This document shows positions 41,206-63,261 of a stretch of 64,000 nucleotides of DNA, one piece after another. The stretch is taken from the IMG/VR virus record IMGVR_UViG_3300050509_000221, positions 18,664 to 82,663 of that record. The stretch is one strand, 5' to 3'. The translations under genes and the position numbers were made by a program. The stretch is from a virus (lineage: Duplodnaviria > Caudoviricetes). Every line of letters starts with the position of its first letter. Within the stretch, counting starts at the first letter, position 1. The notes below the pieces were generated by a model. The model searched no databases. It was not told where the DNA came from and saw only the letters and a program-made list of their open reading frames with translations.

Positions 41206-41613
41206 ATGACGACAGCACAGGTCCTCCGAGTTGAGTGGACGATGGCCGACCGAATCAGCAAGGTTCGGCGCACCCTGGATCTCGAGCAGGAGGAGTTCGG
41301 CCAGAAGGTCGCAGGCGTGGGCTCGGCAGCGGTCTCGAAGTGGGAGCGCGACCGCGGCAAGCCGTCAGACCCGATCGGCACAGCGCGTCGCATCGAAGAC
41401 CTCGCCATCGCCAGCGGGCACCCGGAGTTCACCGCAGCATGGGTGCTCGGACTCGACTCGTACGACGAACCACGAACCGGAGGCACAATGGGCATGTTCG
41501 ACAAGATCAACGTCGAACGCCCGCAACGCTCGCGAGGCCAGAACCGCACCGGCGCAGGGCGCAACCGCGCTGGCGGAACCCGGCCCGCAGAACGCGGCCA
41601 ACGCGCTGCCTGA
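41206..41613 (+). CDS. Immunity repressor (XRE HTH)
   Basis: ISKVRRTLDLEQEEFGQKVAGVGSAAVSKWERDRGKP; divergent from the excisionase; ends QRAA. Confidence 0.85.
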   Translation: MTTAQVLRVEWTMADRISKVRRTLDLEQEEFGQKVAGVGSAAVSKWERDRGKPSDPIGTARRIEDLAIASGHPEFTAAWVLGLDSYDEPRTGGTMGMFDKINVERPQRSRGQNRTGAGRNRAGGTRPAERGQRAA

Positions 41614-41652: not shown

Positions 41653-42552
41653 GTGAGTGAACATTCGCCCACTCGGCACCGCACGCGAACAGGGCCGGGT
41701 GGGCGAGGCCCGATGGACGGAGCCGAGATCATTCGGCGGCACGTCGCGCACATGACAAGACGCGGCTTACGACCGACCACCGTCACCTACCGCATCCGCG
41801 CGCTACGACGGCTCGAGATCCACGCAAGTCGCTCCCTGCTCCACATCCACCTCGACGACCTCCGCGCCTACCTCGACGCGCTCCCCGACGCGGGCTACCG
41901 CTCCGCAGAGACCAGCCACTTCCGCGGGTTCTTCAAGTGGGCAACGATCGAGGGCTACGTCCACGAGGACCCGACATACCGGCTGGAACGCACCCGGCGG
42001 CGGAAGTACCTGCCGAACCCGATGCCCGTCGATGACGTCGCTCGCGCGCTCCAGAACCCGCCCGCTCGGATCGCGAATGCGATGTGGCTCGCAGCGTACG
42101 CGGGTCTACGCGCCTGCGACCTCGCGCCGCTCCGGCGTGAACACCTGATGATCGACGCTCGGGTCCCGACCGTGTTCGTCGAGGAATCCAAGGGCGGGAA
42201 ACCTCGCACCGTGCCGCTCGCGCCGCTGCTCGTCGAGGCCCTGCGACTCCCCCGCTCCGGGTGGCTGTTCCCCTACCACGACGGGCGCAGCGGACACATC
42301 ACCGCCCACTACATGTCGATGCTCTGCAACGCCTACCTTCACGATCTCGGCATCGACCACACGCTCCACACGCTGCGACACCGGTTCATCACGGACTGCT
42401 ACGCCGTCGACAGGGATCTCGTCGTCACCCAGGAACTCGCCGGGCATGAGTCGATCGAGATGACCCGCCGCTACACCTGGACCGACCCTGGCGCCGCGGC
42501 GAACACTGTCGCTCAGCTCCCCGACCCACGGCGCGTGCTCACGTTCGCCTGA
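41653..42552 (+). CDS. int: Tyrosine integrase
   Basis: GLRACD (R), HTLRH (HxxR), AGH (H/W) and TRRYT (Y); short, with no arm-binding domain evident. Confidence 0.92.
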   Translation: MSEHSPTRHRTRTGPGGRGPMDGAEIIRRHVAHMTRRGLRPTTVTYRIRALRRLEIHASRSLLHIHLDDLRAYLDALPDAGYRSAETSHFRGFFKWATIEGYVHEDPTYRLERTRRRKYLPNPMPVDDVARALQNPPARIANAMWLAAYAGLRACDLAPLRREHLMIDARVPTVFVEESKGGKPRTVPLAPLLVEALRLPRSGWLFPYHDGRSGHITAHYMSMLCNAYLHDLGIDHTLHTLRHRFITDCYAVDRDLVVTQELAGHESIEMTRRYTWTDPGAAANTVAQLPDPRRVLTFA

Positions 42553-42958: not shown

Positions 42959-43099
42959 GTGCAAGCACTCTGGAACGGTTTCTGGTACTACGGGATGTGG
43001 TTATTCCTGATCCCGTTCGGGGCAGGCGCAGGAGTGTGGATCGTTCGTCGAACGCGAAGAAGCCCCCGACCGAAGTCGGGGGCGCAACGCGTGAAGTGA
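42959..43099 (+). CDS. 46-aa single-pass membrane peptide
   Basis: My translation VQALWNGFWYYGMWLFLIPFGAGAGVWIVRRTRR...; GAGG upstream. Confidence 0.45.
   Translation: MQALWNGFWYYGMWLFLIPFGAGAGVWIVRRTRRSPRPKSGAQRVK
43064..43085 (-). terminator. Intrinsic terminator ending module B late operon
   Basis: GCCCCCGAC-CGAA-GTCGGGGGC hairpin followed by TTCTT on the minus strand. Confidence 0.7.
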
Positions 43100-43108
43100 C
43101 GGGCTAGG

Positions 43109-43474
43109 TCAGGACGCGGCGAGCACGACCCTGCGTACCTCGAACATACCCTCGAACACGCGGTCCAGAGACCCGGTCGCGCGGGCGGTGAGCTCGAACA
43201 CGTAGCTCTGCCCGGCGACCACGCTGGACGCGGCAATCTCACCCGCGCTCCACGTCACCGTGACGTTCGGGACGCCGGTCGGTTCCTTCCCGGAACCTGC
43301 CGCGCCCGTGATGCCCGAGGCCTTCGTGAGCTTCGCGGCGGAACCCTTGTCGCCGATCAGGAGCGTGAACGTGTAGCCCGTCGAGAAGTCGATGAGGGTG
43401 CCGTCGTCGTCTTCGAGCCAGAGCTTCGCGGCAGGACGATCCGCCGTGATGTGGTAGGCGAGCTTCTGGCTCAT
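43109..43474 (-). CDS. BppU-like Ig-fold virion protein, module B
   Basis: IDFSTGYTFTL...VTVTWS...YVFELT...FEGMFEV. Confidence 0.6.
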   Translation of the reverse strand: MSQKLAYHITADRPAAKLWLEDDDGTLIDFSTGYTFTLLIGDKGSAAKLTKASGITGAAGSGKEPTGVPNVTVTWSAGEIAASSVVAGQSYVFELTARATGSLDRVFEGMFEVRRVVLAAS

Positions 43475-44217
43475 CGGCGCTGCTCCCGGAGGGTGGCGGT
43501 GTGGCCGCGGTCGCGGACCGTCACGGTGTGGCCGTCGTCGTCGATCGTGGCGGTGTGGGTTCGATCTCGCAGTGTCGCGGTGTGACCGTTGCCGTCGAGG
43601 GTTGCGGTGTGGCCGCGGTCGCGGAGGGTGAGCGTGATCGGGTTGGGGTCCGCGGTGGCGCCGAACGTGCCGTCCGCGTTGATGGTGCAGCCCGCGAGCA
43701 GCGCCGCGAGGGTGCCGACCACCGACGAACCCGACGCGGCACAGAGCGCATCCGCGAGGGTCGCAGCGAGGCTTCCCGCCGCGCCCACCCCACCAGACAC
43801 GGAGCCCGTTGCGTCATCGAGCGTGGCGGCGCAGGACCCGGCGACACCATGCCCACCGGAGGCCGCGCCTGTGCAGTCCGAGAGGGTTGAGCCGAGAGCC
43901 CCGGTGACCGACGACCCGGAAGCTGCGCCGGTCGCGTCGTCGAGCGTGACGGCCAGGGTCCCAGCAGGGCCGGTGCCACCTGTCGCGGTGGAAGTCGCGT
44001 CGGCCAACGTCTGCGCGAGGGACCCGGACGGGCCATGCCCACCGGACGCGACGACGGTCGCTCCGGCGAGGGTCTGAGCAACCGTGCCGGTGACGCTCGA
44101 ACCTGAGGCCGCGCACGTCGCGTCCGCCAGTGTGACCGCGACGGTGCCGGTGACGGTCGTTCCTTCGGAGTGGGTTTGGCCTGGCGCAACCCATCCGAAC
44201 GCGTCGCCACCGAACAT
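43471..44217 (-). CDS. Repeat-rich fibre-like protein
   Basis: About 8 repeats of G(T/S)xAxTLxDATxAASG. Confidence 0.6.
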   Translation of the reverse strand: MFGGDAFGWVAPGQTHSEGTTVTGTVAVTLADATCAASGSSVTGTVAQTLAGATVVASGGHGPSGSLAQTLADATSTATGGTGPAGTLAVTLDDATGAASGSSVTGALGSTLSDCTGAASGGHGVAGSCAATLDDATGSVSGGVGAAGSLAATLADALCAASGSSVVGTLAALLAGCTINADGTFGATADPNPITLTLRDRGHTATLDGNGHTATLRDRTHTATIDDDGHTVTVRDRGHTATLREQRR

Positions 44218-44220
44218 GCG

Positions 44221-44547
44221 TCAGGACCCGTTTCGTCCGGATGCCTCGATCAGATCGGCCATGCCGTCGAAGAACGTCCCGAGCCGGTTCACGACGACTT
44301 GAAGCGTCGCTACCGCGTTTCCCGCGGTGACGGTGGTACCTCGCGCGTCGCTCGCCCACTGACGCAACGTCGGCACGGAGGCTTTGATCCTAGCGTCGCG
44401 GAGGGCGGCGAGTCCGGCGTTGGAGCCGACTTTGGGGCGATGTTCGACGGTGCCGCCATTCGCGGTGCGAGTCGCCCACGTCTCATGGTCGGCGGTCTCG
44501 GAGACCTTGGTCGGCGTGTTGAGAGGCAGGCCGTCGTACTCCGCCAT
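44221..44547 (-). CDS. Hypothetical tail-associated protein
   Basis: Coupled ORF in the fibre block. Confidence 0.5.
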   Translation of the reverse strand: MAEYDGLPLNTPTKVSETADHETWATRTANGGTVEHRPKVGSNAGLAALRDARIKASVPTLRQWASDARGTTVTAGNAVATLQVVVNRLGTFFDGMADLIEASGRNGS

Positions 44548-44548
44548 A

Positions 44549-45391
44549 TCACGACACCTCCGCGTACACGATGCGGGTCGAGTTGGCGAACGTGAACGGG
44601 TTGGGACACGACGCCGGATTCGTCAGGCTGGTGTCGGCACTGCCCCCAACCTTCGGGTTCTGACCTCCCGCGTTGCCGAACAACACCAGACCTTCCAACG
44701 TTGGGACCGTCGTGGCTTTCACCATGATCCCCACGTAGTACAACCCTGCGTACGTCGTGACGAACGTCGACGACAAGTTGAGGGTCTTGGCCGAGTTCGC
44801 CGCCCACGCCGTTGACGTGTCATCTGCGGTGACTCGCAACATCGCGCCTGCGGAGTCGAACAGGGCGAACCACTGATTCGTGCCGACGCTGAGCGCGGTG
44901 GTCGCGGAACGGAACGTGATCGACGTGCAGGTCAAGCCCTTCGGCAAGAAGATCCGGTAGACGCTGAGCCGCCCGGTGGAGAGCTCCGCGGCGTTCGCTC
45001 CAGCGAACAGACCGCGGTCGTAGGTGGAGGCGATGGAACCCGTCGTGCCGCGTGTCGCGGCTTCGCCCGTGAGATAGCTCTCGATGTCGGTGAGGGTCTT
45101 CGCGGTGATCGTCGCTGCGATCTGATCCCCAACGACGACGGTGCGTGCGCTCGTCGATTCCTGTGTGCGGGTGATCGTGAGGGTGTCGGTGGAGATGTTC
45201 GTGACCCGGACGATCTCCGCGTTCGCGGGGGTTGGGATCGTGCCGGTCGGCCAGATCGTCGCGTTGAACGGCACCGCCGGGAACCGGGCACCTTCACCGG
45301 ATGCGACGACGAGTGACGTCCCCGACGTCGCGGGGGACGGCGCGGTCGCGACGGTGGAGTACGCGAGGTTCGCGTGAGCGTCAACCGCCAC
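44549..45391 (-). CDS. Minor tail / fibre protein
   Basis: EIVRVTNISTDTLTITRTQEST...ITA, a common tail fibre N-terminal motif. Confidence 0.65.
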   Translation of the reverse strand: MAVDAHANLAYSTVATAPSPATSGTSLVVASGEGARFPAVPFNATIWPTGTIPTPANAEIVRVTNISTDTLTITRTQESTSARTVVVGDQIAATITAKTLTDIESYLTGEAATRGTTGSIASTYDRGLFAGANAAELSTGRLSVYRIFLPKGLTCTSITFRSATTALSVGTNQWFALFDSAGAMLRVTADDTSTAWAANSAKTLNLSSTFVTTYAGLYYVGIMVKATTVPTLEGLVLFGNAGGQNPKVGGSADTSLTNPASCPNPFTFANSTRIVYAEVS

Positions 45392-45393
45392 AG

Positions 45394-45786
45394 CTACGCG
45401 TTGCCCGCGGTGATGACGAACGAACTCACCGCGACCGGGCCACCTGCGACGAGCGACGTGGTGTTGAGGTTCAGATCCGAGCCCGAGGTTCCCACGTTGC
45501 CGTCGATGACGAACGTCCCACCGGAGGTGACGACACGGAACCACGTCGCGGTGCCGGTCGCGTTGGCACTGGAGTCGTTCGTGATCGCGGAGAGCGTGAG
45601 GACACCCGACGACGCGCCAGGCGCAGCGGTGGCGGACAACGCCAGCTCCGCGAGGAGTGTCGTCGCCGAACCACCCGACGCGGGCCGCGACCCGTCGTAG
45701 ATCCGCAGCAGACCATTCGATCCGATCGCAGTAGTGATCGCGTCCATCTGCGCGTTGCGGACGGTCGTCGAAAGTGCGAGGGCCAT
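45394..45786 (-). CDS. Virion structural protein
   Basis: LLRIYDGSRPA...ATGTATWFR, a widespread phage family. Confidence 0.65.
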   Translation of the reverse strand: MALALSTTVRNAQMDAITTAIGSNGLLRIYDGSRPASGGSATTLLAELALSATAAPGASSGVLTLSAITNDSSANATGTATWFRVVTSGGTFVIDGNVGTSGSDLNLNTTSLVAGGPVAVSSFVITAGNA

Positions 45787-45858
45787 CAGGTCTCCCGTGT
45801 CACTTGTTCTCGGCGTTGGGGTGGTCGGTTGCCGCCGCGCGACATCCCGACCGCGGGG

Positions 45859-46107
45859 TCACAGCCGACCGGTAAGAAGGTTCGCGACGAACAACACCAT
45901 CGCGATGACCAGCCCACACAGCTGCACGATCTGCCGCGTCCGGTTCGCGTCCATCTTCGCGTCAAGGCTGTCGAAGCGATCCTTGGTGTCCGTGCGGAAG
46001 TCGGCGACGTCGCTGCGGATCTGCACTTGATCGTTGCGGATGTGCTCCACGCGTTCAGCGAGGACCGCAACCCGGACAGTCTCCGGCTCATCACGCTTAG
46101 AGCCCAC
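45859..46107 (-). CDS. Coiled-coil protein with C-terminal TM helix
   Basis: VAVLAERVEHIR... followed by IVQLCGLVIAMVLFVA. Confidence 0.65.
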   Translation of the reverse strand: MGSKRDEPETVRVAVLAERVEHIRNDQVQIRSDVADFRTDTKDRFDSLDAKMDANRTRQIVQLCGLVIAMVLFVANLLTGRL

Positions 46108-46438
46108 GACGCTCGATCACAGCGATGAACAAGCGTGGGGTGGCGTCCAAGGCACACAGCGTCAAGTTGATCGGCCGTTCCATACCGTCTCGACCCATCG
46201 CCGACAGCGCACGACGTTGACCTGCCGCGGGTGACACGCCCGTCGCCACCGTCCGCTCGAACGATTCTTCGTGGGTTGCCCGGTACTTGTCGGGAACGAA
46301 TGCGAGGATTGGTTGACCGATCAACTGTGCCGGGGTCCACCCGATCACGTCTTCGGCGCCTGGTGTCACGTACAGCACTTGCCCTTGGCTGGTCGCCCAC
46401 ACCAGACATGCCCGTGTATCCGCTCTGGTCATCTGCAC
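46097..46438 (-). CDS. Stand-alone PAS domain protein (FixL-like)
   Basis: LYVTPGAEDVIGWTPAQLIGQPILAFVP...H...GRDG.ERPINLTL...FIAVIE matches the PAS consensus. Confidence 0.8.
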   Translation of the reverse strand: MQMTRADTRACLVWATSQGQVLYVTPGAEDVIGWTPAQLIGQPILAFVPDKYRATHEESFERTVATGVSPAAGQRRALSAMGRDGMERPINLTLCALDATPRLFIAVIERRGL

Positions 46439-46611
46439 TCCGGAAGGTCGCGAAGCAAGCGGGGATCGAACGACAGGGAGTAGTCGTGAAGACGGGCGGA
46501 GAGAACGCGGTAGGCGTGCTCACACGACGGGGGTGCATCGCTGGAGAGAATCGCAACGATGACGATCACCGCGACCGCGAGGACAGCAAGGACCGGACTC
46601 CACCGGTGCAT
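46429..46611 (-). CDS. Small membrane protein
   Basis: N-terminal TM helix PVLAVLAVAVIVIVAIL. Confidence 0.5.
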   Translation of the reverse strand: MHRWSPVLAVLAVAVIVIVAILSSDAPPSCEHAYRVLSARLHDYSLSFDPRLLRDLPECR

Positions 46612-46612
46612 G

Positions 46613-46930
46613 TCATCGCCCCTGCATCAACGCGGTGAGCAGGATTCCCAACCCGAGCGCCATCAGCCCACCGACGCCGGCCGTGAGACGATCCAGTTTC
46701 CGGTTGACTTTCTCATCTCGACCAGTGGACTTCGCGTCGAGCTCCGCGAGACGTTCACCCACCCTGGTCTCGAACCGAGAGCGCCAGTCATCCATCTCGT
46801 CAGCGTGCTCACGCTGATACCGCTCCAGACGATCCAGGTCACTGACAGCAAGACTCACGCGCAGTGCATCCGTCCACGTTGAGTCCCGGTACCACGCTTC
46901 GATCCGCGGCGCTTCTCTGCGTTCAGACAT
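46613..46930 (-). CDS. Coiled-coil protein with C-terminal TM helix
   Basis: Ends LTAGVGGLMALGLGILLTALM; common next to actinophage lysins. Confidence 0.65.
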   Translation of the reverse strand: MSERREAPRIEAWYRDSTWTDALRVSLAVSDLDRLERYQREHADEMDDWRSRFETRVGERLAELDAKSTGRDEKVNRKLDRLTAGVGGLMALGLGILLTALMQGR

Positions 46931-46934
46931 CGCG

Positions 46935-47120
46935 TCACGCTGGCGGGATGCTGTCGAACCAACCGGCGGGCAACTTCCAGATCGGGTTCTGGAACGGCCA
47001 GTTCGTCCACCACGACAGCTCGTCCCATGACGTGACAGCGCGCCGCGTCTGCCACGAGTCCTGGTCGATGATCCACACCTGACCGTTGCCAGGGTCTCGC
47101 TGGTACAGCCCGATCGCCAT
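46935..47120 (-). CDS. Small Trp-rich protein after the endolysin
   Basis: 61 aa with 6 Trp; RBS-like GAGAG upstream. Confidence 0.55.
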   Translation of the reverse strand: MAIGLYQRDPGNGQVWIIDQDSWQTRRAVTSWDELSWWTNWPFQNPIWKLPAGWFDSIPPA

Positions 47121-47280
47121 GTCAGCTCTCTTTCGCTGGTTGCGACGCGTCGGGCCTCATCGCGCCACCTGCACGGGTTCGTCATCACGGTTACATTCCC
47201 TCACCGTCGGCACCTCCTGTTAGGTGTCGGCACAGGCCCCGCGGTCGGCCCTTGAAGTTGGCCGCGGGGCCGCTCCCTGC

Positions 47281-48000
47281 TCAGGCCGGTGCGCCTGCCC
47301 CAACGAGGGCGCGGTACTGCTCGACCGACAGAAACGCGGTCGGGATCGGACACGGCACCGACGGGTGCGTGTACTGCAACACCTCACTCGGCACGCCGAA
47401 CTGTCCGTCGATCGCCCCGGCGAGCGCCCGGAGTGGACGGTCGTTCGGCGAGATCAAGTACGCCTTGCCCGACGCGACAGGCTGCGACTTCTCGTTCCAG
47501 ATCATCTCGACAGCGCAGTACATGGTCTTCCCCTTCGGGGTCGGTGCGGGAGCGTCGACACTCGGGCGCGCCCCGGAGTTGAATCGGTCGATGAAGTCGC
47601 GCAGCCCGTCACCAGGACACGCGGTCGCGACGTAGGACGAGTGCGGACGGAGCGGCCAGTCGAGGCCGTGCTGCTCGACGGCTTCCGTCGCGAAGTCCGC
47701 GATGGCCCGCTCGAGCTCGGGTGTGATCGCATCGTCGGTGCCGACCAGCGCGCAGATCGCACGCGAGCCGGGGTTGTAGTTGATGCCGTCCTGCACGCCG
47801 TTCGCGGCGGAGTCGCGGTCCCAGCCGCGGCCGATGAACCGTTCGCCGTGGATGCACGCCCCGAAGTTGTACGCACCGTCAGGGCCGTACTCGTTGGAGC
47901 GTTCCGACTTGATCCGTTCCCACTGCGCGGCGCAGCGCGCGTGGTCCGCGTTGCCCGCGGTCCCGACGACACCGAGGTAGTGGACCGACGGGTTCGCCAT
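47281..48000 (-). CDS. Endolysin, N-acetylmuramoyl-L-alanine amidase (Amidase_2/PGRP-like)
   Basis: SVHY, AYNF, GRGW, AANG and PHSSYVATACPG. Confidence 0.85.
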   Translation of the reverse strand: MANPSVHYLGVVGTAGNADHARCAAQWERIKSERSNEYGPDGAYNFGACIHGERFIGRGWDRDSAANGVQDGINYNPGSRAICALVGTDDAITPELERAIADFATEAVEQHGLDWPLRPHSSYVATACPGDGLRDFIDRFNSGARPSVDAPAPTPKGKTMYCAVEMIWNEKSQPVASGKAYLISPNDRPLRALAGAIDGQFGVPSEVLQYTHPSVPCPIPTAFLSVEQYRALVGAGAPA

Positions 48001-48176
48001 CAGGTCTGGTTCGGGACCGTGTAGACGCCGAGCGCGATAGCGAGCGCGGTCGCGCCAGCGATCCACTCGGGACCCGTGATCGCCGACGGGTCCGACGCGA
48101 CGACGAGCGTCGCCCAACCGATCGCGCCGACGACGATCGCGGTCACTGTCTTGCGGTACTTGGCAAGGACGGTCAT
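48000..48176 (-). CDS. Holin-like protein (58 aa, two TM helices)
   Basis: My translation MTVLAKYRKTVTAIVVGAIGW...LGVYTVPN; the GVYxVPN ending is typical of actinophage holins. Confidence 0.75.
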   Translation of the reverse strand: MTVLAKYRKTVTAIVVGAIGWATLVVASDPSAITGPEWIAGATALAIALGVYTVPNQT

Positions 48177-48198
48177 GGTGGTGCTCCTCTCGGAGAGG

Positions 48199-48732
48199 TC
48201 AGGTGCGGTACCAGAAGGCGAACATGGACGGCGAACCTTCGGTGTCGATGATGTTCAAGGCGCCGCCGCTGTTCTGAAACGCCAACATCTCGAAGTAGTC
48301 CGCCGCGCTCATCGCCCGAACCGTCGACAACGTGTTCGTCAACGCAGCACCGGCGTACGCGACGAACGCTTGCACCGCGATGTACGGGGTGGTTCCGTTC
48401 AACTGGAACGTGAGCGCGCGGTGCCCGGAACCGTTGGCTGCGAAGCCGATGGTGGAGCCGCAGAGGTACTTGCCGCCACCGCCGGTCGGGACGGTGACAC
48501 GCGACGGGTTGCTCGATGTCGAGTGCATCGCGGCGTTGTCGAAGCGTTCCGAGTTGAACGTGACCGCCTGGTTCGATCCGCTCGACGTGTGGGAGATCGG
48601 CGCGTTGTTGTAGATGCTGCACGATGGCGAGTCGGTCGCGATCCACGCGATGTTGTCGCGGCCGTAGGTGTTCCAGTCCGCGGCTTTCCAGGCGGTCCCC
48701 GCGACTGCGGTGAACGGCGTCCCGAACCCCAT
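48199..48732 (-). CDS. Minor tail / receptor-binding protein (C1q-like beta domain)
   Basis: WKAADWN...RDNI, then VTFNSERFD...VTVPTGGGGKY. Confidence 0.65.
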   Translation of the reverse strand: MGFGTPFTAVAGTAWKAADWNTYGRDNIAWIATDSPSCSIYNNAPISHTSSGSNQAVTFNSERFDNAAMHSTSSNPSRVTVPTGGGGKYLCGSTIGFAANGSGHRALTFQLNGTTPYIAVQAFVAYAGAALTNTLSTVRAMSAADYFEMLAFQNSGGALNIIDTEGSPSMFAFWYRT

Positions 48733-49364
48733 CAGGCAGCGTCCTTCGCTGCCTTCACCCTGCTGGTCACCATCCGGTCCAGGTACTCCTGCGGTGAGAT
48801 CAGATCGTCCGGCATATCCACCCCTGCCGCGACGAGAAGGCCGTTGCGCAGCTCTGGGGCGACGCCTTGCATCAGCACGGCTTGCACCTTGAGCTCGTCG
48901 ATCGTTTCGCCTTTGTGGGCATCCCACGACTGGTTGCTCGTCGGCCAGTCCGCGAGGACACGGATGACCGCGGCACGTTCTTTCGGGGGTTGCCATGAGA
49001 CCTCGAACACGCGGCCACACGCGAGGCACACCATGTCCGGGTTGCGGTCCCACACTGCGTTCGCCGCGGCGCACTCCAGGCACTCCGCGATCCAACGTCC
49101 CGCGTTGATGTGCGGCACGACTTGGCGTTCGTCGCGGACCGGTTCGATCGCCGGGCGAGGGAAGGGGTGCGGCGGGCATTCCCCGGCGAGGAACGCGGCT
49201 TGCCAGGCGACCACCTCGTCGAACGTCGTGCAGTGGTAGGCGTGGCGTTGGTCTTCGATGATCGCCGGGTAGGCGTCGTCGGAGTAGGTGCGCGGGTTGT
49301 CCGGGTCTGGCGGTGAGGCGTCGAGGCGCGTCGAGAGGCCAGGGACTTCCACGAAGTGCGACAC
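48732..49364 (-). CDS. Hypothetical protein in the tail block
   Basis: INAGRWIAECLEC...CLAC motif. Confidence 0.55.
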   Translation of the reverse strand: MSHFVEVPGLSTRLDASPPDPDNPRTYSDDAYPAIIEDQRHAYHCTTFDEVVAWQAAFLAGECPPHPFPRPAIEPVRDERQVVPHINAGRWIAECLECAAANAVWDRNPDMVCLACGRVFEVSWQPPKERAAVIRVLADWPTSNQSWDAHKGETIDELKVQAVLMQGVAPELRNGLLVAAGVDMPDDLISPQEYLDRMVTSRVKAAKDAA

Positions 49365-52010: not shown

Positions 52011-52196
52011 CTAGTCGTTGAGTCCGAGAGACCCGGACCGTTGCTTCTTCAACAGGCCCTCATGGACCGCGTCGACGGTCTCTTGTGAGACCTTCGTCAT
52101 CGCGCCTGTCACTTCGACCGTGCTGCCGTTCAGGGCTTCCAGCGTGGAGACCAGCTCGGCCAGATGCGGCCAGTGCTTCGCGACCAGATCAGTCAT
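52011..52196 (-). CDS. Small hypothetical protein
   Basis: Coupled to the tape measure gene. Confidence 0.45.
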   Translation of the reverse strand: MTDLVAKHWPHLAELVSTLEALNGSTVEVTGAMTKVSQETVDAVHEGLLKKQRSGSLGLND

Positions 52197-54195
52197 CGAA
52201 CATCCCTCCCGCGACCTTCACCACCGCGTTCCAGGTCCGGCTCGTCACCCGGTTCAGGGCTTCTTCCACACCGTTGATCGCCTCCTGCGCTGACGCGGTG
52301 ATGACATCCACTTCGATGCCCTTGTGTGTCGGGATCTGCGACGCGGTGAAGATGAGCCAGTTGATCTTGTCGATCTGCTCCTGCACCGCGCCCGTCGCGT
52401 CGCCGTACTTGTCCTTCGTCGCTTGCAAGTTGTTCCGCATGTCGACGAGCGCACCGACGCCCTCGTTCTTGAGCTTGTTCGCCAGCTCGGCTTCGTCGAT
52501 CGTCAACTGGTTCGCCGCCGCAGAGGCTGCGATGCGCGCCTGCTCCACGTTCAGTTCAGCGGCGCGCACCTCCTCGGCGGTCGCGTTGCCATCTGCACGC
52601 TTCTCGGCCAGTGCCTGTTCAGCTTCGATGACGTTGAGTTGCGACTGCTGGTAGCCGACCGCTCCGCCCTGCGCGGCGAGGTACGCGTTCTGGAGTTGCT
52701 GGATGGACTGCTTCGCTTCGTCCGTCGCGGCTGCAACGTCGAGGGTGCCTGCCGCGATGGCGTCGAGGTCGGCCTTGCGGGCCTTCTCCGCGGCAGCCGC
52801 TTCCTGGACCTGGCGGCGCAGTTCCGCAATGCGCGGGTTCAGCTCGTCGTGGCGGGTACGAAGACCCAGGAGCTGCTTGTTGTTTTCCTCAACGGCAGCA
52901 GACCACTGCTGAGCAGTGGTCTTCGTGTTGTCGTTACCGCGACTGAGCCTCTCCTGCACCTCGACGAGTTCGGCGATCTTCGCCTTGAGGACATCCTGCG
53001 ACCCGCGCAACGCGTCGATCTGTGCGCGTGCGTCGCCTGCCGCCTTCGCGCCCAGGATCTGCGAGTCGGCCCACCTGTGTGCGGCTTCCTTGATGCGGTC
53101 GTACTGACTCTCGCCCGCCTGGAACGCGAGCCACAGGGCTGCGAGCGCGCCAACGCCCACTGCGAGCGCGCCGCCGACGAGCACCGTGGAGAGCGACATG
53201 GCCTTGAGGGCTTCGACCGCGTACATGACCTTGAGCGCAAGGGTCTGCGCGCCACTGGCACCAGCGGCGAACCAGTCGGCAAGGCTGTTCCCGGCCTTCA
53301 TCAGTTGGCCCACAACCGTGATGACCGGACCTACCGCCGCGGCAAAGAGGAGCGTCCCCCCGACGGCCTGCTTCGCGCCGGGGCCGAGTTCGTCGAGCCA
53401 ACGCGCGAAGCCCTGCAACGCAGACGCACCTGAGCGGAGCGCGGGGGCAAACACGCCGATGATCGTCGCCCCCGCGTTCATGAGCGATTCCTTCGCTCGG
53501 CTGACCTGGCCCGCGAGGGTCTTGCCGTACGCTTCCGCGCTCCCGCCGACCTGAGTTTCGAGCTCCTTCAAGATGAGCTTCTGCGCGGAGAGGACATCGC
53601 CGCTCTCCACGAAGGACTGGATCTGTGCCTTCTGCTGATCGGTGAGCTGAACGCCAGCCTTCCCGAGGGCAGTGACACCAGCGATCGGGTCGTTGAGCGC
53701 CTTGCCGAGCATGATCGACGCGGCGTTCATGTCGGAGCCGAGAGCGACGGACAAGTCCAGGGCGATCTCAGTCGCCTGGGTGAAGATGTCGTTTCCCTTG
53801 CCCGCTTCGTTGCGAATCCGAGTGAAGGTCAACAGGAGGTTGGACCCCGACGCGATCGCTTCGTCGTCAATGCCGGACTTGGTCATCAGCGCCGACGACA
53901 GGTTCGCAACCTGCCCGGCCGTCACGTTCGCGGCGGAACCAGTCGAGCGGATCGCAGCCTCGGTCTGTGCAGCGACCTTGCCGGACTCGGCAAGCTCCCG
54001 GAACGCCAGGAACCCGAGGGCAGCGATGGGCAGCGTGACAGCCTTCGTGAGCGTCGAGCCCACCTGCGTCATCTTCTGAGCCGTGGATTCCCACTTCGAT
54101 GAGAAGCTGTCCGCCGCAGCGGCGGACTGGCTGAGTGCGCGTTGTGCGCTGGTCGCGTCGCCGACGATCGTGATGGTGACGTTCTTCGCCATCAC
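52189..54195 (-). CDS. Tape measure protein, module B (668 aa)
   Basis: NVTITIVGD at the N-terminus; LGKALNDPIAGVTALGKAGVQL. Confidence 0.9.
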   Translation of the reverse strand: MMAKNVTITIVGDATSAQRALSQSAAAADSFSSKWESTAQKMTQVGSTLTKAVTLPIAALGFLAFRELAESGKVAAQTEAAIRSTGSAANVTAGQVANLSSALMTKSGIDDEAIASGSNLLLTFTRIRNEAGKGNDIFTQATEIALDLSVALGSDMNAASIMLGKALNDPIAGVTALGKAGVQLTDQQKAQIQSFVESGDVLSAQKLILKELETQVGGSAEAYGKTLAGQVSRAKESLMNAGATIIGVFAPALRSGASALQGFARWLDELGPGAKQAVGGTLLFAAAVGPVITVVGQLMKAGNSLADWFAAGASGAQTLALKVMYAVEALKAMSLSTVLVGGALAVGVGALAALWLAFQAGESQYDRIKEAAHRWADSQILGAKAAGDARAQIDALRGSQDVLKAKIAELVEVQERLSRGNDNTKTTAQQWSAAVEENNKQLLGLRTRHDELNPRIAELRRQVQEAAAAEKARKADLDAIAAGTLDVAAATDEAKQSIQQLQNAYLAAQGGAVGYQQSQLNVIEAEQALAEKRADGNATAEEVRAAELNVEQARIAASAAANQLTIDEAELANKLKNEGVGALVDMRNNLQATKDKYGDATGAVQEQIDKINWLIFTASQIPTHKGIEVDVITASAQEAINGVEEALNRVTSRTWNAVVKVAGGMFDD

Positions 54196-61791: not shown

Positions 61792-63261
61792 TCAGAACGA
61801 GACGAGACGCGCCGGCTTCTTCGCTTCACGCGTCGTTGCCCACAAGTGCCGGGCGACGGTCGCCGCGACGAGCGGGCTGATGTCCACCGCCGAATCGCGC
61901 CGTGACCACTTCCACGAGTCGCCAACCTGACGGCGACCCGCACCCTCCACCGCGGCGTTCAACGCGAGCTCGCCACGATGCACGAGGGTGTGACCTACCG
62001 CGTCACGCAGGAACGCCTCGCATGCCTGCGCCGACTCACGACCGTCGAGCAGCACGAGCTTCCCGTTCGGGGTCTTCGGTCCCCGGATGACGAACCCGGC
62101 CTTCTCGAGGTCGGGAATCAACGCGCCCGCCGGGCCTGTCGGGTCCATCCCGATCGCGGAGACGTCGTGTTCGGCGTCCAGTTCAACGAGACGCGGGACG
62201 ATCCACCCGGTGCCCGGCTGATGCGCGGTGACGTGCAACGCGCCACCACAGGTGACGATCCCGCCCGACATGTGACCAGGCGCGACATCGAAGCCGAGGG
62301 TGCAGGGCTCGTCGATCGTCGCTGTCGCGTTGGTGCATGCGGCCCACGCGTCCGCCGGGATTCCACCGCCGCCGAGGGCAGGTTCGTCCCACCATCCGAG
62401 GAACTCGCGGGCGAACTCCTCCGGTGGGAGGGAGCGGCGCATCGCGGCGACGAACTCGATCGAGATACGCCGGCCGAGCGCAAGGTTGGCCTCTTGCCAC
62501 AGGGCACGGTCGTCGAGGACACAGCCGACTGAGCCGAAACGGTGGTCACAGTTCGGCGCATCACATGGTCGTTCCGTCGCGCACCATTCGATCCAGACGA
62601 GACCAGGGTCACCGCCTGGCCGACCCCGATCACGGAGGCGTCGCAGCATCTCGGAGTAGATCAGCCCGGCCGACGAGCCGTACCGGACTTGCGGGTCGCC
62701 GGTCATCGACATCGCCGCCATGGTCGGCAGCAACGAACCGAGGTGGGTGGCTTGCCCGGCGAACCACTCGTCCATGAACAACCGTGGCGCAGTGAGTCCT
62801 CGACCGCCGCCCTTCGTGCGGGCCTTGAACCGGAGGCGCTGGCCGGACATGAACTCGATGCCTTCGTCGCCGTTCGCGTGGTTGATCTTCTTCACCCGAC
62901 GGGAGATCAACGGCGAACCCTCGACGAGGTGCTCCATGTCGAGGAACGCTTCCATCGCGGTGTTGAACTCGTGCGCCGACCACACGACGAGCGGCTGATC
63001 GAACAGCAGCAGGTCGCCCCAGGCTTGCGCCTTGAAAACGTGGGTCTTGATGTTCTGGCGAGGTGCGACGATCGCAGCTTCCAACGCGGCGAGCTTGCCG
63101 TCCGCGCCGATAGCGTTGATGGCGTCGAGGGCCAGTTCCTGCTCCGGGTCGAGAGGCAACCCGATCTCGTGGGCGAGGCCAACCACTTCCGGCCCGTACG
63201 TCGAGACGTGCTCCGGCACCCACAGATGGGCGGGACGGACGAGCGTGTCAGCGGACGACAC
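61792..63261 (-). CDS. terL: Terminase large subunit, module B
   Basis: PRQNIKT (Walker A variant), FMDE, NLALG..IS, FAREFLGWW and DISPLVAA. Confidence 0.9.
   Translation of the reverse strand: MSSADTLVRPAHLWVPEHVSTYGPEVVGLAHEIGLPLDPEQELALDAINAIGADGKLAALEAAIVAPRQNIKTHVFKAQAWGDLLLFDQPLVVWSAHEFNTAMEAFLDMEHLVEGSPLISRRVKKINHANGDEGIEFMSGQRLRFKARTKGGGRGLTAPRLFMDEWFAGQATHLGSLLPTMAAMSMTGDPQVRYGSSAGLIYSEMLRRLRDRGRPGGDPGLVWIEWCATERPCDAPNCDHRFGSVGCVLDDRALWQEANLALGRRISIEFVAAMRRSLPPEEFAREFLGWWDEPALGGGGIPADAWAACTNATATIDEPCTLGFDVAPGHMSGGIVTCGGALHVTAHQPGTGWIVPRLVELDAEHDVSAIGMDPTGPAGALIPDLEKAGFVIRGPKTPNGKLVLLDGRESAQACEAFLRDAVGHTLVHRGELALNAAVEGAGRRQVGDSWKWSRRDSAVDISPLVAATVARHLWATTREAKKPARLVSF

Follow-up and report, generated by a model that had tools for sequence, protein, structure and literature searches.

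The genes described here lie in a 64,000-nucleotide stretch of a caudoviral genome (Duplodnaviria; Caudoviricetes), hereafter termed the window, which comprises bases 18664-82663 of the 82.6-kb IMG/VR record IMGVR_UViG_3300050509_000221. The window has a GC content of about 67% and carries nearly all of its genes on the minus strand. Comparison of the large terminase (61792-63261, minus strand) identified actinophages as the closest cultured phages, though as distant kin only. Its closest matches are the terminases of Gordonia phage Eyre and of mycobacteriophages, among them MichelleMyBell and Phrann; we take these mycobacteriophages to belong to cluster N. The gene for the tape measure protein (52189-54195, minus strand) is followed by virion- or tail-type genes on the same strand down to position 48199 and then by a gene (48000-48176, minus strand) whose 58-aa product contains two hydrophobic segments. 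This small protein yields a weak match to a PHROG annotated as 'membrane protein' and, by its architecture and position alone, is a putative holin. Its gene is also called in L003, an independent 37.8-kb ENA contig with the same gene arrangement as the window. The stop codon overlaps by 1 nt the start of an endolysin gene (47281-48000, minus strand), the 239-aa product of which matches PHROG 1493 (E 2.3e-13) and is about 34% identical to annotated endolysins of Streptomyces and Thermobifida phages (tblastn); a Pfam search of this protein returned no match. After a gap of 160 nt, the largest intergenic gap of the region, five closely spaced genes follow, which are separated by another 72 nt from virion-type genes (43109-45786, minus strand). 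The latter were recognized by a match to PHROG 3758 'virion structural protein' (E 2.9e-33), by tail-fibre PHROGs and by relatives annotated as virion-associated.

The location of the structural genes at 43109-45786, between the lysis genes and the integrase gene (41653-42552, plus strand), is unusual. They encode, among others, a tail-fibre N-terminal domain and a 130-aa protein whose closest relatives are found in Vibrio phages (up to 57% identity). The integrase gene is adjoined by a gene for a 135-aa protein (41206-41613, plus strand) with a weak match to an MqsA-antitoxin-like helix-turn-helix domain (Pfam E 1.3e-4, below the cut-off), and this protein is probably a repressor. The 160-nt gap harbors a GC-rich hairpin (47235-47271, minus strand) that begins 10 nt past the endolysin stop and consists of a perfect 10-bp stem, GGCCCCGCGG / CCGCGGGGCC, and a 17-nt loop; no U tract accompanies it. 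Its fold energy is not significant when compared with shuffled sequences (fold of 47200-47300), and a terminator scan made no call here. Folds of intergenic stretches were likewise no better than those of shuffles, the promoter and terminator scan of the region returned zero sites, Rfam gave no match over 43000-49000, and the 9-kb region had no megablast match.

The five genes form a module (47120-45859, minus strand) in the order g61, g105, g60, PAS gene, g82, with a spacing between neighbors of -11 to +4 nt. The first gene, g61 (46935-47120, minus strand), encodes a 61-aa, Trp-rich protein (nine Trp) that appears to be soluble, with no transmembrane segment in the hydropathy profile, and is 38% identical to the product of a 57-aa gene at the same position in the related contigs L004 and L005. 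Hydropathy predicts the product of g105 (46613-46930, minus strand) to be tail-anchored, residues 82-104 at its C-terminus forming the transmembrane segment and the N-terminal part being helical and cytoplasmic. In L004 the gene at this position encodes a tail-anchored protein of 70 aa to which the N-terminus of g105 is 41% identical, and L002 has a C-terminal transmembrane fragment here. The 60-aa protein encoded by g60 (46429-46611, minus strand) has an N-terminal transmembrane anchor and two cysteines; hydropathy, alignment and translations characterize it as a short form of the 152-156-aa N-anchored proteins with a cysteine pair that precede the PAS protein in L002 and L004. The last gene, g82 (45859-46107, minus strand), begins with a GTG inside the final codons of the PAS gene, the two frames sharing 11 nt, and encodes a tail-anchored coiled coil with a transmembrane segment at residues 57-82, as deduced from hydropathy and from homologues in the relatives. 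An earlier note on this DNA had described the PAS gene as coupled to small membrane proteins, and the hydropathy profiles agree with it for all three genes, with one N-terminal (g60) and two C-terminal (g105 and g82) membrane segments. The same note had placed the group directly downstream of holin and endolysin. It does lie behind both, but the 160-nt gap and the gene for the 61-aa protein precede the membrane protein genes. It had gone unnoticed that the five genes form one conserved module and that virion genes, rather than the end of the operon, come next.

Within this module the PAS gene, the fourth in order, is the best conserved part. All five genes recur with unchanged order in L004 and L005 (57, 70, 156, 114 and 82 aa), and four of the five are visible in L002: the end of a tail-anchored protein, the 152-aa N-anchored Cys-pair protein, PAS and its partner. 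The 11-nt overlap between the PAS gene and the gene for its partner is present in all six loci found. Homologues of g82 with 34-47% identity and this very overlap occur in L004, L005, L002 (start GTG at 921) and L008, and 80-82-aa genes follow the PAS gene with the same overlap on contigs P0002 and P0003. The partner evolves faster than the PAS protein (dN/dS 0.3-0.7) and is never lost, and its family is characterized by a cytoplasmic amphipathic helix with an invariant AVL.ER motif. Neither g61 and g60 nor g105 and g82 gave any match in Pfam, PHROGs or PADLOC, the latter searched at E values of up to 1 with nine module proteins, those of relatives included, and g82 and g105 had none among GenBank phages. 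The module proteins also match no described holin or antiholin family in PHROG or Pfam. A search against the Pfam model of XhlA (PF10779) was negative for g82 and g105 at E up to 0.1 and for their L004 homologues at E up to 1. An Atlas feature search with g82 led to a cluster containing XhlA (0.93) and to clusters of XhlA-like and DUF4164-like proteins about 90-115 aa long, which we treat as a lead only. Paralogy of g105 and g82 was considered and rejected (BLASTP E 0.075, hhalign probability 3%), the two proteins having architecture alone in common.

The GC content at third codon positions is 0.68-0.74 in g105, g60 and the PAS gene and 0.81-0.88 in the flanking genes, which suggests, as far as base composition can tell, a different origin of the middle of the module or different expression constraints. 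Taken together with the hairpin after the endolysin gene, the lower GC3 is compatible with an inserted, separately regulated unit. In L004 the gene after the PAS partner (positions 1628-1795) encodes a DUF1508 (YegP-like) protein (Pfam E 7.5e-10), and the downstream flank of the module therefore differs between phages.

The open reading frame of the PAS gene (46097-46438, minus strand) was assigned on the basis of Pfam, an AlphaFold2 model, family conservation and dN/dS. Translation likely starts at the ATG at 46432, which has GGAG 5 nt upstream, overlaps the g60 stop codon in an ATGA arrangement and yields a protein of 111 aa, as does the public gene call; a start at the GTG at 46438 would give 113 aa, and residues are numbered here according to this longer form. 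Pfam PF00989 matches residues 11-97 of 113 with an E value of 3.2e-8 and 34 bits against a cut-off of 22.6, so that the PAS fold proposed earlier is recovered in a profile search, and PAS_4 also scores above its threshold (27.7 versus 23.1). With a 60-row alignment AlphaFold2 returned a complete PAS topology at a pLDDT of 91, whereas an earlier model built from a 5-row family alignment had been poor (pLDDT 53.5). The model contains strands at residues 11-16, 20-24, 75-81, 87-97 and 103-110 and helices at 27-31, 36-39, 44-47 and 50-66, i.e. a five-stranded antiparallel sheet with flanking helices, and it superimposes on solved PAS domains with TM scores of at least 0.8. The protein stops directly after the last strand and is thus a single PAS domain without N-cap, linker or effector. 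The architecture of complete FixL, with a coiled-coil linker and a HisKA/HATPase kinase fused to the PAS domain, is absent. Compared with its relatives, the PAS gene exhibits dN/dS values of 0.11-0.25, synonymous sites being near saturation, and judging from this substitution pattern it is a real gene under purifying selection.

All relatives of the PAS protein are metagenomic. They comprise five full-length proteins of 111-116 aa with 66-77% identity and a partial one in L008, and a search with the family profile gave back only the five known proteins. When 1.84 billion representatives were searched exhaustively with HMMER, a single match exceeded 40% identity, again a protein of 111 aa, while the remaining matches were PAS repeats of large sensor proteins with at most 38% identity. 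The stand-alone form is therefore normal for this family, in line with the earlier description of a protein of 113 aa that is almost entirely one PAS domain and lacks a kinase or any other output domain. No relative was detected by tblastn in 50,697 GenBank phages or, beyond the record of the window itself, in IMG/VR; GTDB genomes contained generic PAS matches in Methylobacterium only and JGI metagenomes distant PAS proteins only. The BFVD contains several short proteins from uncultured Caudovirales under the name 'PAS domain', with lower similarity (TM 0.6-0.7).

Among PAS domains of known structure, those that bind heme are the closest. A single-sequence search of the PDB gave the heme domain of Sinorhizobium meliloti FixL as the best single-domain match, followed by Bradyrhizobium japonicum FixL and EcDOS. 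When the family profile was used, all full-length matches at E<1e-3 were heme PAS domains (S. meliloti and B. japonicum FixL, FG214 with PDB entry 10jx, EcDOS/DosP), whereas the non-heme proteins PER and ARNT were matched in their N-terminal halves only. The structural comparison with FixL and Dos proposed in the earlier note led in the same direction: ranks 1-23 of the Foldseek search are all heme PAS domains (TM 0.79-0.83, rmsd 1.6-2.2 Å), ARNT/HIF reach a TM score of about 0.71 at an rmsd of 3.0 Å. Since the alignment underlying the model included FixL-like sequences, this structural result depends in part on the likeness in sequence. On the basis of sequence and model, the assignment of the phage protein as a stand-alone PAS domain of the FixL/heme-PAS class is supported.

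The register pointed out previously, P-x-x-x-R-x-x-H followed by R-x-x-x-T, is reproduced by HMMER, which aligns P..YR..H.....R..ATG.....G..R without a gap to S. meliloti FixL 1d06. The gap-free stretch spans F-alpha helix through G-beta strand, and neither F-alpha nor the FG loop differs from FixL in length. The roles of the FixL pocket residues, including the proximal histidine and the oxygen-binding arginine, have been described (PMC10765370). His56 of the phage protein (codon 46271-46273) corresponds to the proximal histidine on F-alpha, i.e. S. meliloti His194 and B. japonicum His200, and Arg76 (codon 46211-46213) to the oxygen-binding arginine on G-beta, S. meliloti Arg214 and B. japonicum Arg220. 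Both residues are invariant in six of six family members; Cys11 and Cys95 are invariant as well, and the FG-loop stretch TGVSPAAGQRRAL is almost invariant across the family. Arg62 is equivalent to the propionate ligand Arg200 (S. meliloti) or Arg206 (B. japonicum) and is replaced by glutamate in the other family members. A second propionate ligand of the B. japonicum protein, His214, has its equivalent in Pro70. The distal isoleucine pair of FixL (S. meliloti Ile209/Ile210) is not kept, the corresponding residues being Ala71-Ala72 here and Ala-Ser in P0004. Judged from the alignments, the phage protein genuinely departs from FixL in its small distal residues and in the absence of a His214 equivalent.

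These observations can be combined into a tentative picture, one that we hold to be attractive though somewhat short of probable, of a membrane-associated accessory module in the late operon of a temperate, as yet uncultured actinobacteriophage, whose five genes have at their core a cytoplasmic, output-less PAS sensor and a tail-anchored coiled-coil partner and make lysis dependent on sensing. The PAS protein would hold a cofactor in its FixL-type pocket, most likely heme b with His56 as the ligand and Arg76 on the distal side, and its state would shift with oxygen, redox state or a diatomic gas. Lacking N-cap, linker and effector, it would have to pass on any signal via protein contacts, i.e. 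in trans. PAS domains bind flanking helices in cis by a face of their beta-sheet. It is conceivable that the same face docks on the cytoplasmic helices of g82 and perhaps of g105; the conserved co-translation of the PAS protein with a membrane-anchored partner that carries an amphipathic helix makes the helix of this partner the natural docking site, a contact that we infer from the gene coupling. A prediction of the complex of PAS, heme and residues 1-58 of g82, run without controls, gave ipSAE values of 0.00 and 0.01 and permits no verdict either way. The tail-anchored proteins, finally, may exert their effect in the membrane alongside holin and endolysin, so that the membrane step of lysis would track, in its timing or efficiency, the respiratory state of the host. 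The full proposal, namely that in a clade of temperate actinophages a stand-alone heme-PAS gas or redox sensor gates holin-dependent lysis or another membrane event in trans via tail-anchored proteins and according to host oxygen or respiration, must be regarded as unlikely in its entirety.

The connection with lysis is suggested by gene position. In the window phage the module is situated behind the holin-like gene and the endolysin gene and ahead of virion-type genes, all on one strand, and the presence of virion-type genes on the same strand downstream favors late expression. On contig P0003 the arrangement is 55 aa - 261 aa - PAS - 82 aa, followed by opposite-strand HTH genes, and the sizes of the first two genes suggest holin and lysin. 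L002 encodes a 57-aa protein with two transmembrane segments 1.1 kb downstream. A linkage of the homologues to lysis genes, which the earlier note had led one to expect, holds for the window phage and probably, by gene sizes, for P0003, but no lysin is visible within the 200 nt upstream of the module in L004 and L005, and among the relatives the link can be seen in at most two of five lineages, since their contigs are short. A role in lysis, as far as position alone can tell, is our best guess, made with less than even confidence.

A different function of the module is somewhat unlikely but has a number of observations on its side. Sensor and membrane proteins could together constitute a moron, lodged in the variable stretch that separates the lysis genes from the integrase/immunity cassette and expressed on its own schedule or from the prophage, in which PAS acts as the trigger and the tail-anchored proteins as the effectors of superinfection exclusion, abortive defence or a change in host membrane physiology. 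It fits with such a function that in P0003, P0002 and L008 the PAS pair closes a rightward operon and is the last element before opposite-strand early or immunity genes, including HTH and Ead/Ea22-like ones, that the module resides only about 3.3 kb from the integrase gene in the window phage, that its GC3 is below that of its neighbors and that hairpin and 160-nt gap set it apart from the endolysin gene. The patchy distribution, with no relative in the GenBank phages or elsewhere in IMG/VR, points in the same direction. So does the resemblance of the terminase to those of MichelleMyBell and Phrann: Dedrick et al. are said to have reported in 2017 that cluster N phages hold prophage-expressed defence genes between lysis cassette and integrase. 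On the other hand, PADLOC did not recognize any of the module proteins, the scan found no promoter-like site, the module shares the strand of the late genes and has virion-type genes after it, and its five genes are coupled to each other and placed behind the holin-like gene and the endolysin gene.

With regard to the cofactor, binding of heme by the phage PAS protein is plausible from sequence and model, and we consider the chances for and against it about equal. Whole-domain alignments were obtained with heme PAS structures only, F-alpha helix and FG loop match FixL in length, and His56 is invariant in a protein under strong purifying selection. The exchange of Arg62 in the relatives is not decisive: the S. 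meliloti FixL variants R200A/Q/E/H retain heme spectra (PMC10765370), and glutamate at this site does therefore not exclude heme. A PAS protein devoid of heme, which could be combined with either the lysis or the moron setting, nevertheless has to be considered. It would bind another small ligand in an enlarged pocket, or none, and might serve as an adaptor or holdase for the tail-anchored proteins. The replacement of the distal Ile-Ile by Ala-Ala or Ala-Ser, the proline in place of His214, the lack of conservation of Arg62 and the invariance of Cys11 and Cys95 all speak for this option. Moreover, the nearest PAS relatives belong to a very large subfamily that shares the histidine and the arginine and to which proteins with 10-13 repeats belong as well. 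Heme binding as a general property of this subfamily is undocumented, and not all of its members are known heme binders. Given the features shared with FixL and the behavior of the R200 variants, we regard a heme-free protein as rather unlikely. That the open reading frame arose by chance or is a decaying, functionless fragment of a host sensor kinase is refuted by the conservation data and deserves hardly any credence, since six homologues of the same length from separate metagenomes, the low dN/dS, a Shine-Dalgarno-preceded ATG in an ATGA overlap, a conserved downstream partner gene and a Pfam score in excess of the cut-off stand against a GC3 of 0.69, which is under the average of the window genes.

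Among characterized proteins, FixL (S. meliloti 1D06/1EW0; B. japonicum 1DRM, 1XJ4, 2VV6 and 8JS5) provides the best match to the phage PAS protein in both sequence and fold, with the proximal histidine, the Arg200/Arg206 position and the oxygen-binding Arg214/Arg220 (S. meliloti/B. japonicum) in gap-free register. Sequence identity amounts to no more than about 20-24%, however, and FixL possesses an N-terminal dimerisation helix, a coiled-coil linker and a histidine kinase, whereas the phage protein has Ala-Ala in place of the distal Ile-Ile and Pro in place of His214, is phage-encoded and is coupled to membrane proteins instead of taking part in FixJ signalling. EcDOS/DosP (1S66, 1V9Y, 9CMF) and FG214 of Fimbriimonas ginsengisoli (10JX) are the next-best full-length matches in sequence and fold. 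They differ by fused effectors (GGDEF-EAL or HTH) and by six-coordinate heme, while a second axial ligand is not evident in the phage protein. The FG214 heme PAS works via changed protein association and not via enzyme control (bioRxiv 10.64898/2026.03.15.711900).

Other parallels concern the membrane proteins and the use of PAS sensors by phages. In T4 lysis inhibition, the antiholins RI, which is periplasmic and N-anchored, and RIII, which is cytoplasmic, act on holin T, and small proteins on both sides of the membrane thus tune holin triggering upon a signal. The module likewise contains one N-anchored extracytoplasmic and one small cytoplasmic protein, but the analogy to RI and RIII is functional only: the proteins are not related in sequence (no PHROG match), and the T4 signal is superinfection and not a ligand sensed by PAS. 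XhlA consists of a coiled coil and a C-terminal transmembrane segment. In the PBSX element of B. subtilis this small membrane protein of the lysis cassette acts with the holin XhlB (PMC5589764). The architecture of g82 is alike, although it does not match the XhlA family in Pfam and XhlA is not accompanied by a PAS protein. In F1-cluster mycobacteriophages, several small holin-like transmembrane proteins, LysF1a and LysF1b among them, jointly set lysis timing (PMC13056207). LysF1b is anchored N-terminally in an N-out/C-in orientation, whereas g82 and g105 are anchored C-terminally and are without a match in GenBank phages, and the F1 cassettes do not encode a sensor protein. VqmA_Phage of vibriophage VP882 is a phage-encoded PAS sensor by which a small-molecule signal governs a phage decision. 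VqmA has a DNA-binding output domain and sets the lysis-lysogeny switch by transcription, whereas the PAS protein of the window lacks an output domain and is encoded among membrane and lysis genes. We place the arrangement next to two known kinds, heme-PAS sensors and accessory membrane proteins of lysis cassettes. Our literature search yielded no description of a phage lysis cassette with a PAS or heme sensor nor of a module of this kind, in agreement with what had been stated for this arrangement at the outset.

The timing of lysis sets phage fitness and is thought to be determined mainly by holin accumulation and membrane energisation. To our knowledge, few external inputs into lysis have been described, such as T4 lysis inhibition, and none that operates via classical ligand sensors. 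Should the proposed function prove true, a cofactor-containing PAS protein wired to membrane proteins beside the holin would provide a direct route from host respiration or oxygen to burst timing. It would also be a case of minimal PAS signalling in trans, without a fused effector, and of a lysis clock that manages without an enzymatic or DNA-binding output domain. If the module is expressed from the prophage instead, it would represent a new kind of sensor-gated membrane effector. With a protein of only 111 aa and a clear readout of heme by spectroscopy, the idea can be examined at little cost.

A bacterial protein of the same PAS class was encountered on JGI contig Ga0208079_1000325 (L009, 8683-9207). 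It consists of 174 aa, combines a stand-alone PAS domain with a coiled coil, contains a P..HR..H motif and is 28% identical to the phage PAS protein. By eye, its gene adjoins a 668-aa open reading frame with a cupredoxin-like C-terminus, reminiscent of copper nitrite reductase or multicopper oxidase, and is also located beside two open reading frames of hemerythrin-like appearance. Given these neighbors, this class of PAS domain might serve gas sensing here.
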